64,000 nt of DNA from a virus (lineage: Duplodnaviria > Caudoviricetes): positions 112,888-176,887 of the IMG/VR virus record IMGVR_UViG_3300028833_000067; one strand, 5' to 3'. This document shows positions 1-40,820 of the stretch, piece by piece. The translations under genes were made by a program, and so were the position numbers. Below the pieces are notes generated by a model. It was not told the origin of the DNA, ran no database searches, and saw only the letters and a program-made list of their open reading frames with translations. The number at the start of each line of letters is the position of its first letter. Positions within the stretch are counted from its first letter, which is position 1.

Positions 1-1
1 T

Positions 2-3000
2 AATAACTTTGACTGGTATAATGGTGGTTATGGTAGTGATGCTACTGGTAGTTACTTCCTTGTTAAGGCAGGTACTCGTGCGTACTTTGATTATAAAATG
101 TTTAAGAGTTATCAGCACGCTGTTGGTGAGAATACTTACGAAACTCGCAGCGCAGTATTCCGTGATGGCGCAGAAATGAAAATCATCTTCAAGACTGCGG
201 CAGTTCGTGACGCGGGCGCAACTTGGTTTACTAACATGGGTAAAACTAGTGAAAGTGACGCAGCAAAAGAAGTTGGTATTCAATTGAAAGTTCATGAAGG
301 TTGGTTAAGAACTGATTCTGCTTCTGATAAAGAAATTAATGGAGTCGCCGCAACCAATACCTACTTATACTTCCCATATTCTGAAGAAGATAAGATTGAA
401 CTTGATATTAGTATTAACAAACAGGCTGATGCTGCAACTAAGGGTCTCTTCTTAATGTCTTATGAAGATGGTTGCCCAAGTAAAGCATATCCTTACAGTG
501 TTACTGAAGCTTTATATCATACTACTAATGATGAATCCATTATTACAATTGGTTCCGATGACTGTGATGTTTACATTTACAGATTCAAGATTTATACTAC
601 AGCACTTGACACTGAAGATGTATTACGTAACTTCATTGCTGATGGTAAAGATGTTGAAGAAAGTATTAGCCGTTATGAACGCAATAGTATTTATTGGAAC
701 ACTCAGAATGCATCCTATACTCCTTATGAAGGTGAAGATACCGTTCTAGATCCAGAACGTCTTGCTGTAAAGATGCCTGATGTTAAAATCTTAATGTTAG
801 ATACTCCTCATTTCACTACCAGTAAGAAAGATTTCGTTGCTAACTCTAGTTTACGTTGTATTCATGCGCCAGGTGGTAAGGTATATCCAAGTCGCGGCAA
901 GGAAGATAACTGGCTATTCTATAACGGTTATCATGCTGGTCAAGGCACAACTTCTGACAAGTATGGTAATGCTGGACGTAATGTTGACTTCTTATTTGAA
1001 TGCGATGGCATACATAATCCTTCTGATAAGGTTAAGGATGAAAAATTCATTCCTAATTATCAATCCGCATTAATTCGCGGCTATGGTACTGATGAAGCAG
1101 AAGAACCTACTTACTGTTTAGATTGGAAGGACCAGGATACATGGCAGCCAAATACTGATTATACTTTACTATATACTATGTCTGATGATAGTACTCATCC
1201 AATGTTAGTACGTTATAATGGCAAAGTATATAAGTGTTTAGAAGCACATACAAGCGGTGAAACCTTTGATGCGACCAAGTGGGAAGAACAAGAAGGTTAC
1301 TCTAGTAAGGTTTCTTTAACTAGTACCTCTATTCCAAATAACTTCTTCAATTTAAAGGTTAATATCGCATCTTCTGAAAATGTTAATAATGCATTACTAC
1401 AGAAGAGATACAATGACTATCTTACTTATCTATCTCCAGCTTATATGCGTGATCGTCGCATTAAGAATGATATGGAATTTGTTCCTGCACTATTATTTGT
1501 GCGTGAAAATGATGAAGAACATACTACTGAGATGATTGAGGGTAATGAAGTCATTAACTATACTAACCACAAAGAGTTTAATGATACAAACTGGCATTTC
1601 TATGCATTAGGTAATATTGGTGACTCTAAGAAAACCGACTACACTCGTGCATATGATCCAACTGATATTAATGAATTTACTCTTGAAATTTCTGATAACA
1701 ATACCAATAACTCTCAGTTCTAGTCTGGTGTTTACTACTCTACTATTTATTATGATAGTGTAGAAAGCCCAGTAGTTGCTGATATCGGTAAGTATTATGA
1801 AGCTGATGGGGAAGTCACTCTAGTAGAGGACGAATCCAATCGCTACACTGGTACTTTCGTATTAACAACCGATACTGAAATTGATAATGGTAAGACCTAT
1901 TATGTACAAGCTCGTATGATTGAAGCATATCATGCAGAACAAGATAAAGACGATGACGGTACTTTACTTGATACTTTCACCGCTAAATCTGATGCAGGCG
2001 AGAGTGTACAGCCTATGGCTTATGCCTTCCCAATTACAATGGAAGAATGGGCAGGCTTAGATGAAAATGAAGAGCCTCGAAACATGAGATATTGGTCATT
2101 ATATAACGAAGAATTTGATGGTGATCACTCCTTTGAAATGCGTTATGCATATTATGGTAACTATCGTGATGGTAAATTAGTTAATGGTAATAAGGCAGAA
2201 TCTGAAGCTGTACGAAAACGTAATAGCGATGTATGGCGCGCTTTCTACACTTGGCTAATAACTGCAACAGATGAAGAATTTGTTGAACAACTAGATGAGT
2301 GGGTAGTAAGGCGCTCAGTAGCATTCTTCTATGCCTTTACTCATTATTATACCATGATGGATAACCGTGCAAAGAATACATTCTGGCATTTCGCAAAGAC
2401 TGGTAAACACCGTAAGGTGCTACATCCTATGAAGGAAATGATTCATACTTATGATGAAAATCCAAGCGGCGATGCTGTAGCTGATGCACAGGATGCAGAT
2501 ATTTGGAATGGTACATTCGTTCGTACTTCTGATACCGACCTTGACCCTGAAAAGCAATACTATACCGAATACGCTTTCGATATGTGGGTATATGACTGTG
2601 ATACTGCTATTGGTATTGATAATAACGGTGAATTAGTATTCCCATATGGTAAAGAAGATACTGACTATCGTATTGATGGCGATGCTTCTTCTTCCTACGT
2701 ATTTAATGGTGCAGGCTCCATCTTTTGGCGCCGCTTAAGTAAGAGCTGTAATAGTGATATTGTTAGCGCATTTACTGGTGCAAATGAAAGATGTTTCAAT
2801 GCAGAACATTTGATTCAAGAGTTCGATAAGGTACAAGGATGTTATCCAGAAGCAATCTGGAGATTAGATGTAGAACGTAAGTATATTCGTTCCTTCACCG
2901 GTGACTACGGATACACTAAGGCTAACCCATATCAAAAGGTATTCCTTACCCGCCAAGAAACTCGTTTCTTACGTGATATGATGCAAGGCCGTAAGAAATA

Positions 3001-6000
3001 TCAACGTCGTCAATGGTGTAAAGATCAAGATGTTTACTTTGGTAGTAAATATTTACTTCCAAATGTATTCGCTGATCTATTTGAGTTCTCTTGTTATAAT
3101 CCTGGCGGCATGGCTGTAACACCGAACTGGGATTTAACAATTACTCCATATCAGGATATGTACATTAATATATCCTATGCTGAAACGTTTGCCCGTCCTT
3201 TCCGTGCAAAAGCTGGTAAAACATATGAGTTTAAATCTATCTTAAATGATATGAATGATTCTCGTATTCGTATTTATGGTGCAAATCATATTCAAGCTCT
3301 AGCAGGTAAAGCAATCCGTGATGCGGAAACGGGTGAAATTATCGGTGCTGAAGGTCTTGCTTCTTTCTACATGAAGGCAAACAACTTCCAGCATACACAT
3401 AAATTACGTAAGTTAATCATTGGTACTCCTAACACTGCTTATGAAAATGGTAACTTTACTACACTTAATATTACAGATGACAACCCAATCCTTGAAGTTT
3501 TAGATATCTAGAATTGCAATAACTTAGGTGGTCAACTTCCTTTAAGTAAGAGCACTTCTATTCAAAGAATTGAAGCACAAGGTACACAGATTACCTCTGT
3601 TAACTTACCTCCTAACACTGGTATACAAGTACTCCACTTACCAGAAACAATTAATAACATTACTCTATACTCTGCAAAGAGCCTACAAGAAATCACCTTA
3701 AAAGAGCGTGATGGAACAGTTAATACTTCTAATCTAACTACCTTATTAGTTAATGACAGTGACTACTCTTCAGTAAACGGTGAACTGCCAACCGTTAATT
3801 GGATGAAACTCGCGGCAAGTGCCTTGAGTCATATATCTAGCTTACAGTTAATTGGTTTAAGATCCGCTTACATTGGAAACATTTCTGACTTAGAACCTTT
3901 TGCTATGCGTAAGAATCAGTTAGGTACTACCACTAATGAAGCTGGTGACGAAATCTACAGAGTGTGGTTAAGTGGTCAAATCGCAGTTACTGGCGCATGG
4001 TCACAAATTGAGATAGATGATTATCAGTCTATCTGGCCCATAACTTTTACAACAATTCCCGCTAAGGAGCAATAGAAAGTTAAAGTAACTTATATGGAGA
4101 GCGCGCATTGGGAAGGAAATACTTGGGTAGAAGCACAACAAATAGGCGACTCTATATATGTTGCAGCAACTGGTAAAGATAGCGATCGCACTATCCCCGA
4201 TATTTATTATGGTTAGCAGCTTAGCGATTTACCAACTAGACCTTCTACTATTGATGAAGTATTCTCTTTTGGTGAAATTTTAGATGGACAATATTTAATG
4301 TATTCTGGCTGGTCTAAAACTCAAGGGCCTAATGCTGTTCCATTGAATAGTTTAAATGGCGGCAACTATGGTATTAATAATTTATATAGAGCTACTTCAA
4401 ATGATGTTGAAACAGGAATTACATTATATACTTATTATAAAGCATCAGCACATAAGTATACTGTAAGATGGTATTTAGATGATAATACTATAGTTAAATC
4501 CATGAGTAATCAAGATGCACATGGTGGATATACTCTAGAAGCTCCTACTGTTAAAGAAATGAGAACAGGTGTTGTTGATTATTCTAATAAATTAGCTTCA
4601 TATTCCTTTAAAGACGATACAGTAACTTATAAAATTTTTGATGGATGGGAGAAACTTCCTACTGATATTAGTCCAACATTAAAAGAATCAGATACTAGTA
4701 TATATCGTATTGATGCTAAATGGTATGAGGAGACTAAGTCGCTAACTGGAGAAAATGGTCTATTTAAAGATACATCTAATCTTACATTAGATTAGCTATA
4801 TATCTTATCTCATATGGATAGCTCAATGAAAAATAGTTTTACAGATAGTAAGCAAATTACTATTAATTAGAAATTTAGTTATACAATGGGATATGATGGA
4901 TTAAAAGATGGTTTGGTATTTGCTAATAATAAAAACTTTATTAATAGCCCAGCTACTCTCATTGCCGGTGAATATGCTACTGTTAATGGACAACGTATTG
5001 CTCCTTTCTCTAATAATGATGGCTTTACTATTGCAATAGATTATCAATTTGATAAAAATTAGAATTTAAATTCTAAAGCCGCAGTATTAGTAGGCTGTTA
5101 TAATAAAAATGAAGGAAATATTACTGGTTTTGCACTTTATCGAAATGGTGCTTCAACTGGTGAAGTACGTATAGGATATGGAGATTTTATTAATGACAGT
5201 AATAAATCTAAAGTTATTAATAATAGTGGTGCACGAAATATTGTTGTTATACGTCATCCAAAAGGATCATCAATACTATATATTTACTCCAGCGCAGCAA
5301 AGAATGATATTACTGCTATTAATTTACCAAACGTAGAATCAATTGATGTCAATACACAATTAATTGATAACAATGCATTTATTTGTTTAGGGAATTTACG
5401 TACTGATATTAGTGGCGATTCTGCTCTTTCTGATAATCCTTCTTATACTAATGAAATTAATAATGCCGGTAATGCATACGGAACTATTTATTGGGCAAAA
5501 TATTGGCCAGAAGACTTGGGTGCTGGTGAATGTAAACAACTAGCTGCGTGGCCGCATGAATCTATGACTTCTATGATTGCCGCGATAGGTTCTAATCAAA
5601 CAACTCTTCCAAACATTTATTTAAGCAATCTAAATGCTTCTCAGCATGCTTCAGTATAGCCACGAACATTAGGGAATACTACAGCAGAGCTTGGATGGGG
5701 TAATTCTGGAATTAAGTAGATTTGTGATAATCGTATTTTTGCTGGTTTACCAATAAGAATGCAATCTATTATAGGTAAGATTAATATTGGTTATTATAAT
5801 TCATATGTTACTCTTGATGAATATAATGCGCCAAGTTATGGTATAAATAATAATCTATTAACTGATGGGGCCTTTGTATATGTTCCTTCTATTAGTAGCT
5901 TAACATCTAGTATGAATACATATAATAAGGAATCAATAGTTGAACGTACTGGAAATTCTAGCAATGATACCAGTGATATTACTCCTTATCCATGGTTAAA

Positions 6001-6535
6001 TACTCCAATATAGATTTATGATTGGAATATAAATACAGAAACGCATTGGGTAAAATCAGATATGGTTAGTAACTCTAATTATCTTAATATTCGATTCGCA
6101 AATAAATCTTTATTATCTTTAGGAAAAGATAATAATTTAAGAATTTTCTGTATTAATGCTCCTAATCCCACTTTAATTAATGGTAGAATATATGATGAAA
6201 TTAATTCTAATATTACTGATGGTATAAAAACAAATGATATTGTCATATTAAATAATATTGCTTATTTGTATATAAGTAGTACTGATTATACTCCTTATGT
6301 CATGGATATTGTTAGTTCCAATACTGACTCTAGACTTAATACAAATGGTAATGGTGGATGGATTAAAAGTATAGCTTATCCAACTCGTTCAGTTTCTTAT
6401 GGTAACCAATAGAGCAATTTTATTTATATTAAATAGGATGGTAATATGGTGGTTCCAAGTAGTGGAAGCGATTAGGCATATAATCAAAGTAGCTTTGATA
6501 GTAAGCTAAATTTAACTTATGCATACACAATTTAA
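2..6535 (+). CDS. Giant virion/tail-associated protein, 5'-partial, >2170 aa (LamG-like, CBM-like and LRR-like segments); TAG read as Gln
   Basis: Track ORFs 98, 1916, 3803, 4298, 5759 and 6062 share one frame and are separated only by TAG. The frame is open from nt 2 to TAA 6533-6535, followed by a hairpin. Confidence 0.8.
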
Positions 6536-27364: not shown

Positions 27365-27393
27365 TTGACTTTTTTCAAATTCCATGATATAAT
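27365..27393 (+). promoter_or_regulatory. sigmaA-type promoter at the start of the early/tRNA island
   Basis: TTGACT-N17-TATAAT with TG extension. Confidence 0.7.
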
Positions 27394-27467
27394 ATTTACA
27401 GAAGATGAGGAAAGGAACTCACCTTCTATAAAATAATTTTTTTCATTACATAAGGAGGTAATGAGAT

Positions 27468-27806
27468 ATGATTAAAATCTACAGTGATAAGACCGGAAAG
27501 TTCTATAATACAGTAGACGAAGCAAATCGTGCTGAATTTGAACTGAAGGAAAAGGAAAACCTAGCTCGTATTGAGAAGGAACGCAAAGAGCGTGAACTCA
27601 AGGAAAAGAAGGATAAGGAAGCCGCTGAGCGTAAGGCTGCTGCTGAAAAGGTAGAAGCCGCGCGCAAAGCAATGGTAGATGCCCAGAAAGCATATAAGGA
27701 AGAACTGGATAAGTTCATTAAGACTTATCATACTTATCATTTCTCTTCTAATAATGTAGAAGATTTTCCGCATCTGTTTGACGTACTAAACGTATTCAGC
27801 TGGTAA
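27468..27806 (+). CDS. Coiled-coil hypothetical protein
   Basis: AGGAGG RBS; Lys/Glu-rich; no TAG. Confidence 0.75.
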   Translation: MIKIYSDKTGKFYNTVDEANRAEFELKEKENLARIEKERKERELKEKKDKEAAERKAAAEKVEAARKAMVDAQKAYKEELDKFIKTYHTYHFSSNNVEDFPHLFDVLNVFSW

Positions 27807-27812
27807 TGGCTC

Positions 27813-27837
27813 GGGCTGAGCCTAATCAGCCCTTTTT
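27813..27837 (+). terminator. Intrinsic terminator just upstream of the suppressor tRNA
   Basis: GGGCTGA-GCCTAA-TCAGCCC-TTTTT. Confidence 0.65.
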
Positions 27838-27841
27838 CTGG

Positions 27842-28104
27842 TGCCCTGCGGTCCGTGGCGGACAGACGGTCTCTAGGCTTAATTGGAGCCTTATATGGGG
27901 ACATATAAGTGAAAACGTCGCTAAGTCGGTGAAGGCTTAACTGCTAATACCGAGCAAGGGATAAATCCTATGTGTAGAGACTTTACACGACGCATCTAGA
28001 ACAGATGAAGATAAAGTCCAGACCACAATACGAAAGTAATGTGATATAGAAAACCGTGGCCTCTGAAGCAAACGAAGTTGGTTCGATTCCAACCAGGGCA
28101 GCCA
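27842..28104 (+). tRNA. Amber suppressor tRNA(CUA), presumably Gln; exons 27842-27874 and 28050-28104
   Basis: Acceptor TGCCCTG/CAGGGCA + G-CCA; D arm GTCC/GGAC; spliced anticodon arm ACGGT-CTCTAAA-ACCGT; T arm GTTGG-TTCGATT-CCAAC. Confidence 0.85.
27875..28049 (+). ncRNA. Group I intron (compact, 175 nt, IC3-like) in the suppressor tRNA anticodon
   Basis: P1 CTCT/GGAG with U.G at the splice site; P2 CTTATATG/CATATAAG; P3 CGTCG/CGACG; P4 TCGGT/ACCGA; P7 GACTTT/AAAGTC within GTAGAGACT and AAGATAAAGTCC; P8 CATCT/AGATG; P9 with GAAA loop; terminal G 28049. Confidence 0.88.
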
Positions 28105-28435: not shown

Positions 28436-28603
28436 ATGGAAGATTTAAAGAAAGAATTGGCGCGAGTAGGACTAGATAAAGATGATACAACTGAAAGTAT
28501 ATTACAGGAACTTGCGCTAGAATGGAATAGCATGTCCCAAGAGCAGAAAGATCATTTTATTGAATTATTCACTCAAGCAGATTTAAACAAAATAATTATT
28601 TGA
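28436..28603 (+). CDS. Small acidic hypothetical protein
   Basis: AGGAG RBS; 55 codons. Confidence 0.5.
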   Translation: MEDLKKELARVGLDKDDTTESILQELALEWNSMSQEQKDHFIELFTQADLNKIII

Positions 28604-28649
28604 CATATAATAAAATTTTTGTTATAATTTATTCGTAAGGAAGGGAGAG

Positions 28650-28760
28650 ATGAGAATGTTAGATGATTTCATTATGAATTTCTCTTGGGAAGAGCTTGAA
28701 GACGAATATTACACAATTGAAGATTTGGAAAATGATTATTTGACAGAAGAAGAAAATTAA
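28650..28760 (+). CDS. Very acidic 36-aa peptide
   Basis: Own promoter (28600-28628) and GGGAG RBS; MRMLDDFIMNFSWEELEDEYYTIEDLENDYLTEEEN. Confidence 0.5.
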   Translation: MRMLDDFIMNFSWEELEDEYYTIEDLENDYLTEEEN

Positions 28761-28781
28761 TGTATAATAAAGGAGTAAGAG

Positions 28782-32617: not shown

Positions 32618-32735
32618 GGGAGATTCGCTAATCGGAATAGCACGCGGCTGGCCTGATACCAAAGAGATATAATAGGGGCAGGTCCTATATCAGACAATTA
32701 ACCGCGCCAGAGAGGTTCAACTCCTCTATCTCCCG
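32618..32735 (+). tRNA. tRNA-Asn(GTT) with a 47-nt insertion (32651-32697) in the anticodon loop
   Basis: Acceptor GGGAGAT/ATCTCCC + G73; D arm GCTA/TAGC; stem CGCGG/CCGCG; CTG|insert|TTAA; T arm AGAGG-TTCAACT-CCTCT. Confidence 0.75.
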
Positions 32736-32830
32736 CTCGTGCTTTGATGACCAAATGTAGCTTGGCAGTAAATAAACATTAATGCAGATGTGGGGTTATG
32801 ATGAAAGCCTTTACCTTAAAAGGCTATTAT

Positions 32831-38313: not shown

Positions 38314-38459
38314 AGGAGAATCATATAACGGTAGTATGGCGGTCTCCGGGGCGATAGTGTAAAGAACACACTAGGAAAGCAAGGACCTAGTAATTGAAGG
38401 GCAGTACTGAGGCGCTCCACCAAAAACCGTTCGTCCTGGTTCAAATCCAGGCTCTCTTG
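38314..38459 (+). tRNA. tRNA-Trp(CCA) interrupted by a 75-nt tRNA-like insert (38348-38422)
   Basis: AGGAGAA/CTCTCTT + G73; GCGGT-CTCC|insert|AAA-ACCGT; T arm CCTGG-TTCAAAT-CCAGG. Confidence 0.78.
38348..38422 (+). ncRNA. Nested degenerate tRNA-Ala-like RNA
   Basis: GGGGCG/CGCTCC-A-CCA with G3.U70; D arm GTGT/ACAC; stem CTAGG/CCTAG; weak T stem with GGCAGTA loop. Confidence 0.7.
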
Positions 38460-40692: not shown

Positions 40693-40763
40693 TGGGGTGT
40701 AGCCAAGCGGCAAGGCACAGGACTTTGACTCCTGCATCGTTGGTTCAAATCCAACCACCCCAG
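40693..40763 (+). tRNA. tRNA-Gln(TTG)
   Basis: TGGGGTG/CACCCCA-G; loop CTTTGAC. Confidence 0.9.
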
Positions 40764-40820
40764 CTGATTCCGTATGTGTTGGTCCGATTCCAACAGGGAC
40801 TGCTTTTAGGAGGGATTATT

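Follow-up and report, generated by a model that had tools for sequence, protein, structure and literature searches.

Phages that read the amber codon TAG as glutamine (code 15), among them crAss-like phages, Lak phages and phAss-1, encode suppressor transfer RNAs (tRNAs) with a CUA anticodon, which lie in the phage tRNA array, serve mainly late structural genes and are presumed to be charged by the host (PMC7886860, PMC9523058, PMC10607447). Some clearly TAG- or TGA-recoded phages have no detectable suppressor tRNA, and host suppressors or very divergent tRNAs have been suggested as causes (PMC7886860, PMC10607447, PMC12386605). Group I introns occur in the anticodon loops of bacterial and plastid tRNAs, including Leu(UAA) ('Leu.3Ug'), Arg(CCU), Ile(CAU) and fMet; Williams 2020 (10.1101/2020.01.27.920355) places the tRNA-Leu(UAA) and tRNA-Arg(CCU) introns in subgroup IC3 following a curated database, and raises the known bacterial tRNA-intron settings from 4 to 21 in a survey of bacterial and archaeal genomes, not phages. 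The group I introns known from phage protein genes (T4 td and nrdB, Zeta crAss-like phages, Jug) split mRNAs; they are mobile, abundant in large phages and often accompanied by homing endonucleases (HNH or other), and splicing makes them phenotypically neutral (PMC3984707, PMC7886860, PMC12363816). Here we describe a case in which, in contrast, a tRNA is interrupted and the removal of the intron would create its anticodon. It lies in the last 64 kb (hereafter the window, 64,000 nucleotides) of a single 176,887-bp IMG/VR virus record (IMGVR_UViG_3300028833_000067), which is linear and 98% complete according to CheckV. In this 177-kb phage TAG is read, to judge by codon alignments, as Gln, and the sole TAG-reading tRNA gene (27842-28104) is cut within its anticodon by a group I intron (27875-28049). 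The intron is of the classical group I kind found in tRNAs, but its host, an amber suppressor of a phage, is new. Coordinates are those of the window and refer to its + strand unless stated otherwise.

With introns allowed (ARAGORN -i), ARAGORN called the tRNA(CUA) gene exactly, in both the window and the whole genome, with the insert after U35 and the splice junction tctct/aaaac. The 5' exon (27842-27874), also read directly, contains the 5' acceptor strand UGCCCUG (U1 to G7, 27842-27848), a D arm with a 4-bp stem and a 5-nt loop (27851-27863), the 5' strand of the anticodon stem (27866-27870) and C32, U33, C34 and U35 (27871-27874), so that it ends in ACGGU-CUCU. The 3' exon (28050-28104) starts with AAA-ACCGU, which supplies A36, A37 and A38, and goes on with the 3' strand of the anticodon stem (28053-28057), a variable region of 19 nt (28058-28076), the T arm GUUGG-UUCGAUU-CCAAC (28077-28093), the 3' acceptor strand CAGGGCA (28094-28100), G73 (28101) and an encoded CCA (28102-28104). 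Joined, the exons give the loop CUCUAAA (C34 U35 / A36, anticodon CUA) within a cloverleaf, which ARAGORN also recognises in the spliced form; its acceptor stem has 7 bp and a U1-A72 pair, its T loop is of the GTTCGA type, and its anticodon loop of 7 nt has U33 and, at position 37, a purine. The initial annotation of this DNA had proposed precisely an amber tRNA(CUA) split between positions 35 and 36 by a group I intron devoid of an open reading frame (ORF). Its coordinates turn out to be correct, and the features that it listed (P1 with U.G, P2 to P9, terminal G, no ORF, U1-A72 and G73) are all present on inspection. It had also anticipated that standard tRNA scanners would miss the gene: default ARAGORN lists 13 tRNAs in the window, this one not among them, and Rfam at its gathering threshold reports neither tRNA nor intron at 27842-28104. 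A blastn search with the split gene against 50,697 deposited phage records gave no match.

That this is more than a chance resemblance to a split tRNA follows from two observations, namely that the junction is uninterrupted in a relative with identical exons and that the intron helices covary. The predicted spliced junction, ACGGTCTCTAAAACCGT, matched 36 loci in IMG/VR. Locus L007, which is the same place as L124, belongs to record G010 (189.6 kb), whose terminase is 84% identical to that of the phage under study. The uninterrupted tRNA(CUA) of G010 consists of exon 1 plus exon 2 of the split gene, the odd 19-nt variable region included. Both exons are 100% identical between the two phages (blastn aligns 28050-28101 with L124 1501-1552 at 100% identity), whereas in the upstream flank identity drops to 76.6%, and the alignment is interrupted precisely where the intron lies, leaving an exact 175-nt presence/absence difference, the pattern looked for in a group I intron. 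As the intron and the 3' exon both begin with A, the deletion alone would permit a 1-nt shift of the junction; the boundaries 27875-28049 were chosen because group I rules place a U before the 5' splice site and a G as the last intron base. Among the other matches to ACGGTCTCTAAAACCGT, those in L004, L005, L009, L014, L018, L024 and L032 are look-alikes of the CUA anticodon arm with a stem lengthened by CTCG/CGAG, sitting in a conserved non-tRNA context (...cccatcccca...), and may represent a mimic or a regulatory element. The match in L015 lies in the neighbourhood of a tRNA(CUA) that ARAGORN leaves uncalled and whose variable region measures about 34 nt.

The intron itself (175 nt, starting with A and with no room for an ORF) matches the group I model RF00028 (Intron_gpI) at 27870-28042 over the full model, with 36.5 bits and E-values of 7.7e-8 (451 nt searched) and 7.1e-9 per genome; this covariance-model check, suggested in the initial annotation, thus returned a full-length match at the insert, though below the gathering score. 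A structure drawn by hand was tested on nine distinct homologues, whose hosts are CUA tRNAs in six cases, tRNA-Tyr(GUA) in two and tRNA-Asn(GUU) in one. P1 (27868-27890) pairs the exon sequence GG.CUCU (27868-69 and 27871-74) with the guide GGAGCC (27885-27890) and places the wobble U27874.G27885 at the 5' splice site. P2 (27891-27908) is a 7-bp hairpin with the GNRA loop GGGA, in which three of the seven pairs are changed on both sides. P3 (27916-27920 with 27988-27992), 100% paired and with four of its five pairs changed on both sides, encloses P4 to P6 and the 5' strand of P7. P4 (27926-30 with 27949-53), P5 (27934-36 with 27943-45) and P6 (27958-61 with 27966-69) are 89-100% paired. In the P7 pseudoknot (27977-28019), G27977 and G27979-U27982 pair with A28015-C28019, leaving A27978 bulged; from textbook group I anatomy, we take G27979-C28018 to be the guanosine-binding pair. 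P8 (27993-28007) is a hairpin inside the span of P7, 100% paired and with one pair changed on both sides, and P9 (28024-28043) is a hairpin with the GNRA loop GAAA, part of the covariation set. P10 was drawn with two pairs, in which U27883-U27884 can pair with A28050-A28051, and the last intron base, G28049, corresponds to omega G.

Across the nine homologues, 95.0% of the cells form standard pairs, compared with 34-43% in controls whose 3' partners were displaced by 1-3 columns; 17 pairs are changed on both sides and none of 500 shuffles reaches the covariation score. All nine have the U.G wobble, an unchanged P7 and the terminal G, the invariance of P7 being uninformative on covariation. In P1, the pair that involves anticodon base 34 switches with the host anticodon, from C-G in all six CUA hosts to G-C in all three GUN hosts (Asn and Tyr), so the guide sequence tracks its host. 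The minimum free energy (MFE) fold, with a z-score of -3.8, recovers P2, P4-P6, P8 and P9. Searches of the genome with RF00028 and the core motifs detected no second intron, 27875-28049 being the sole match.

These elements suggest how the suppressor would mature by standard group I chemistry. In the precursor, P1 would arise from pairing between the exon segment GG.CUCU and the intron guide GGAGCC, which puts U35.G at the splice site. The P7 site (G27979-C28018, beside the bulged A27978) would take up a free guanosine that cuts after U35, and the terminal G28049 would then occupy the guanosine site. The short P10 (UU with A36 and A37) would align the 3' exon, and ligation of U35 to A36 would create the CUA anticodon. 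Host enzymes would finish the tRNA and charge it.

The use of TAG as a sense codon is visible at the scale of whole genes. When TAG is read through, frames that are otherwise fragmented, in the window and across the whole genome, join into long genes, including those for the portal (6 TAG) and the terminase (5 TAG), and tail proteins also contain TAG. A giant late frame outside the window (genome 37249-52947, - strand) has 5232 codons, 125 of them TAG; further giant frames obtained by TAG read-through have 2642 codons with 56 TAG and 3220 codons with 21 TAG, the latter ending in the window (1-6535, +). We aligned codons by tblastn of 15 proteins against 80 related IMG/VR loci, which yielded 2921 aligned TAG cells. 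The codons most often found opposite TAG were CAA (839 cells), TAG itself (647) and CAG (215), and Q accounts for 1054 of the 2274 sense-codon cells, far ahead of K (156), E (151), L (145), S (124) and Y (28). Q is the majority residue at 33 of 62 TAG sites and at 17 of the 18 sites where relatives agree at 80% or more. By the same measure, Q is the majority at 64 of 113 of the phage's own Gln codons. TAG sites therefore match Gln about as strongly as genuine Gln codons do, and TAG is, on this codon evidence, Gln in this phage, which bears out the code 15 assignment made earlier. Ser, Tyr and Leu identities, considered on account of the long variable region, were rejected by the same alignments.

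A further question is whether another suppressor exists. In the 98%-complete genome, no second tRNA with a stop anticodon was found by ARAGORN with and without introns, by the Rfam tRNA model or by a custom hairpin and T-arm scan; an uninterrupted suppressor elsewhere in the genome had been named beforehand as a finding that would count against a gating role, and by these three methods the split gene is the only suppressor. The phage genome encodes no Glu/Gln-tRNA synthetase, release factor or GatB, and host enzymes must therefore charge the tRNA. In its CUA anticodon, its mainly late structural TAG = Gln codons, its place in the phage tRNA array and the presumed host charging, the gene resembles the tRNA-Sup(CUA) of crAss-like phages, Lak phages and phAss-1. 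It differs from them in being split by an intron, and thus invisible to the tRNA finders of those studies, and in having a long variable arm with a look-alike of a Gln anticodon in place of the short variable loop of tRNA-Gln.

The body of this tRNA is indeed atypical. The initial annotation had remarked that U1-A72 and G73 fit a Gln acceptor, and both are present; they correspond, as does the T arm, to those of the tRNA-Gln(UUG) that the phage itself encodes (40693-40764), the two T arms being nearly identical. What it overlooked is the long variable arm and the short D loop: unlike in tRNA-Gln, the D arm has a 4-bp stem with a 5-nt loop and the variable region measures 19 nt, not 4-5, so that this is no typical tRNA-Gln. 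In bacteria, recognition by seryl-tRNA synthetase depends on a long variable arm, and the anticodon plays no part in it. The alternative of a class II-type suppressor that carries not Gln but another amino acid, Ser being the candidate, would accordingly find some backing in the 19-nt variable region, in G73 and in a best Rfam match to the tRNA-Sec model, but at TAG sites Ser is the majority residue at only 3 of 62, against 33 for Q; moreover, the variable-arm stem has just 2 bp, what is conserved in the arm is the sequence of the loop, as opposed to length, and U1-A72 and the T arm are those of the phage's own tRNA-Gln(UUG). Charging with Ser is hence very improbable.

The conserved part of the variable arm is a hairpin (28059-28069) in which the pairs G28059-C28069 and C28060-G28068 close a 7-nt loop, CUCUGAA (28061-28067). 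This loop is the decoding loop CUCUAAA with a G at position 36, that is, a look-alike of the anticodon loop of tRNA-Gln(CUG). In a comparison of 16 distinct phage tRNA(CUA) with long variable regions, the closing pair is C-G in 16 of 16, the next pair covaries (GC in 12, CG in 2, AU and UA in 1 each) and the loop reads YUCUGAN, with UCUGA invariant. The hairpin is also found in L006, L008, L023, L027, L121, L126, L120, L147, L185, L302 and L332. Glutaminyl- and glutamyl-tRNA synthetases (GlnRS and GluRS) read the tRNA anticodon. A spare Gln anticodon head in the variable arm could consequently keep the suppressor chargeable by a Gln enzyme. We tentatively propose, as a possibility that we would still rate below even, a 'two-headed' Gln amber suppressor, whose variable arm would be a mini Gln(CUG) stem-loop kept so that GlnRS or GluRS/GatCAB accepts the tRNA, while the intron targets the decoding head only; that in such a design the intron would also be exploited for timing the code switch is less likely. 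In the literature, we found no paper on a suppressor tRNA with a variable arm resembling a Gln anticodon, and the design of this tRNA may be more novel than its intron. If functional, the look-alike would be a new way to keep tRNA identity after a change of anticodon, which is relevant to the engineering of suppressor tRNAs.

Taken together, the locus is very probably a working amber suppressor gene that inserts Gln at UAG and is split by a group I intron, most likely mobile and predicted to be self-splicing. Several points weigh against this reading. The RF00028 score of 36.5 bits lies below the curated gathering cut-off of 50, although the Rfam seed holds no bacterial introns and scores of 18-20 bits have been used for tRNA introns (Williams 2020, 10.1101/2020.01.27.920355). 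The intronless allele has its best Rfam match in RF01852 (tRNA-Sec), with 34.1 bits (cut-off 47) and E 2.4e-5; RF00005 is not listed for it, and the mature form falls below the cut-offs of the Rfam tRNA clan because of its 4-bp D stem with 5-nt loop and its 19-nt variable region. Charging of the mature tRNA with Gln is deduced from the codon alignments, and self-splicing, the mobility route and the charging enzyme are likewise predictions. A host-encoded suppressor is conceivable. Finally, the intron contains no endonuclease gene and none is tied to it, which leaves its route of mobility conjectural, and the pattern expected from recent gain would equally result if the G010 lineage had lost the intron precisely.

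Some of these points could be taken to mean that the gene is disabled, with intron or exons defunct and TAG read by a host suppressor or by an unrecognised phage tRNA. The odd D arm and variable region, the scores below Rfam cut-offs and the fact that the record is linear and 98%, not 100%, complete speak for it. Yet all core helices are intact and all nine homologues keep the U.G, P7 and the terminal G; the exons have stayed 100% identical to the uninterrupted allele despite a flank at 77%; the phage depends on the reading of hundreds of TAG codons, for which the three search methods disclosed no alternative suppressor; and the hosts of recoded phages use the standard code (PMC10607447, Borges preprint 10.1101/2021.08.26.457843). 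We therefore regard a dead gene as highly unlikely and retain the working, intron-split suppressor.

A different question is whether the intron does anything for the phage. As splicing creates the only suppressor anticodon, it would be obligatory for reading the TAG-rich late genes, and the initial annotation went further in proposing that the ribozyme step gates the code switch, delaying or conditioning the suppressor and hence the synthesis of virion and lysis proteins. Splicing is logically required in a 98%-complete genome with no uninterrupted suppressor, TAG codons are concentrated in structural genes, and a ribozyme beside a tRNA-Sup has been proposed as a switch in the case of the theta ribozymes (PMC10879173). 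These (hepatitis delta virus-like) ribozymes offer a parallel in that they too link a ribozyme to tRNA-Sup maturation in recoded gut phages, with a code-switch trigger discussed for them; they are of another class, however, self-cleaving, located beside the tRNA and proposed to process it, not an intron inside the anticodon (PMC10879173). The distribution of the intron speaks against a gate. Ten large relatives were compared, and a CUA tRNA was identified in seven genomes: the intron is present in the phage under study (G000) and, at the same site and with 177 nt, in G005 (L120), and is lacking in G001, G004, G006, G007 and G010, the last with an identical tRNA. For G002, G003, G008 and G009, of which only parts of the tRNA arrays were covered, a DNA search revealed no homologue of the split tRNA and no group I match. 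The relatives, five of seven of which thus have a CUA tRNA without intron, appear to recode TAG too (647 TAG-TAG cells, pooled). The intron family also occurs in ordinary sense tRNAs (Leu, Tyr and Asn), where no switch is at stake, and no extra domain or sensor was recognised in the minimal 175-nt core. The gating proposal is thus not upheld, and we consider it improbable: splicing is required for the suppressor, and nothing indicates regulation.

Other IMG/VR contigs (L147, L185, L238, L244 and L302) also have CUA tRNAs that contain the intron. Between the split gene and these copies, the introns are 82-86% identical and the exons outside the anticodon arm 52-61%. Introns more alike than their host tRNAs, together with exons identical to those of the intronless allele, make the intron look like a mobile passenger, and on these comparisons it is most likely a tolerated one and not an evolved timing device. 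The simplest account is that a mobile intron targets the conserved anticodon arm, CGGUCUCU/AAAACCG, and that it would either be a recent acquisition here or have undergone precise loss in G010; the intronless target site reads CGGTCTCT/AAAACCG. A recent entry into the suppressor gene at its anticodon arm might have proceeded by homing, with an endonuclease supplied by a related intron, or by reverse splicing.

The intron belongs to a larger family. The two-part core motif ATGTGTAGAGACT...GAAGAYAWAGTCC was found at 73 IMG/VR loci, most of them, according to intron-aware ARAGORN, inside tRNA genes and chiefly in tRNA-Leu(UAA); the motif was also seen in Leu(CAA), Leu(UAG) and Asn(GUU), in Tyr(GUA) (identified by eye) and in additional CUA tRNAs. 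In this family the splice site called by ARAGORN is often displaced, and Leu(UAA) hosts receive the wrong label Phe, Lys, Gln or 'tta'; these labels were dropped as separate host types, since the junctions that we read fit Leu(UAA) with a shifted splice call. Many copies measure 700-880 nt, and two that we checked encode HNH endonucleases (Pfam HNH, 22.9 and 26.1 bits; cut-off 21.4). The family is common in phage tRNA-Leu (UAA, CAA and UAG), Tyr and Asn genes (L128-L199), often with HNH inside, and occurs on bacterial contigs (L306-L325). The two-part motif is present in 20 bacterial contigs, where the host was called as tRNA-Leu(UAA) in 10, tRNA-Arg(CCU) in 5 and tRNA-Asn(GUU) in 1, with split sites CUU/...G/AAAA (34/35) for Leu(UAA) and CUGU/...G/UAA for Asn(GUU). 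The exact core motifs TGTGTAGAGACT...GAAGAYAWAGTCC are common to our intron and the bacterial Leu(UAA), Arg(CCU) and Asn(GUU) introns, and the intron is 71% identical over 67 nt to that of a phage tRNA-Leu(UAA). A pattern based on P1, GGTCTCTN{6,10}TTGGAGCC, proved too loose in IMG/VR, with at least 108 matches, mostly by chance; among the matches listed, only L147, L238, L244 and L302 were real. G007 has three Rfam group I matches (L326, L327 and L328), one of which (62.8 bits) is a 261-nt intron in tRNA-Leu(UAA).

By inspection, the intron has no P5abc, a short P5 and GNRA loops on P2 and P9, and it is of the bacterial tRNA anticodon-loop type and tentatively IC3-like, a label that follows Williams 2020 and the general anatomy of these introns. 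Like the bacterial and plastid IC3 introns, it sits in the anticodon loop, with a U-1.G pair, a terminal G, a small ORF-less core, GNRA loops in P2 and P9 and no P5abc. Unlike them, it resides in a phage stop-codon suppressor and at site 35/36 (in the notation of Williams 2020 'Sup.4Ug', standing for position 4, U-1 and omega G: CUCU/a...g/AAA), and its guide is one G longer, pairing with C34. It forms part of a compact subfamily of 173-177 nt in CUA hosts and about 190-195 nt in Asn and Tyr hosts, inserted at site 35/36 in place of the classical 34/35, with the guide GNAGCC, whose N pairs with base 34. The 173-177 nt of the CUA copies are fewer than the 202-295 nt of the ORF-less bacterial copies found in the same analysis, and the Azoarcus intron, with 205 nt, is longer as well.

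Full-text searches of the literature retrieved no paper describing a group I intron inside a phage suppressor tRNA. The earlier suggestion that a gene hidden in this manner may explain recoded phages that seem to lack a suppressor is strengthened, as scanners do miss the gene and such phages have been reported (PMC7886860, PMC10607447, PMC12386605). A gene that is present but split by a group I intron is a third reason for missing suppressors and is open to computational checks: the split gene is passed over by default ARAGORN and by the Rfam tRNA model, and the Rfam intron model sees the intron only below threshold. An intron-aware pass over recoded phages (ARAGORN -i plus a model built from these introns) would improve both code prediction and annotation. 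Phage tRNA arrays, in which the family is common (73 IMG/VR loci with one strict motif), are added to the hosts known for the classical bacterial tRNA introns, and the natural pair of alleles, with intron in the phage under study and without it in G010, is suited to testing the cost of the intron or its effect on timing.

Upstream of the suppressor gene lie a sigma-70-like promoter (27365-27393), a cow-rumen-4 RNA motif (27398-27464; 57.6 bits), an ORF of 112 codons (27468-27806) with no Pfam family above cut-off, and a terminator-like hairpin with a U-run (27813-27839) that ends 2 nt before the 5' end of the tRNA and might matter more for expression than the intron. G010 has a hairpin at the same place, without the U-run. 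In G010, a cow-rumen-3 motif follows the intronless tRNA (L124 1557-1640); with rumen RNA motifs beside the suppressor in both phages, these orphan motifs belong to this phage group. Downstream of the suppressor gene are two perfect sigma-70 consensus promoters (TTGACA-17-TATAAT; 28600-28628 and 28740-28768), which fit a host of Bacillota type rather than Bacteroidota. The nearest named terminases are those of Bacillota phages (Geobacillus E3 and Enterococcus) and phAss-1, at 31-36% identity (34% for phAss-1). A crAss-like affiliation, guessed from genome size and recoding, was rejected in view of these terminase relationships and the sigma-70 consensus promoters.

Two other tRNA-like sequences of the window deserve mention. 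One, at 38348-38459 (Rfam tRNA 16.9 bits, E 0.39), has both D and T arms; its 'anticodon' loop measures 10 nt and its variable region 41 nt, and its acceptor stem is poor. At 32618-32736, a tRNA-Asn(GUU)-like gene carries a hairpin-forming insert of 47 nt (32651-32697) between G34 and U35. This is too short for a group I intron; no Rfam family matches the insert, and none of the 343 loci retrieved contains it. The corresponding gene is intact in the relative L125 (148-219), and the insert could be a mini-intron or an intron remnant, or the gene could be dead.

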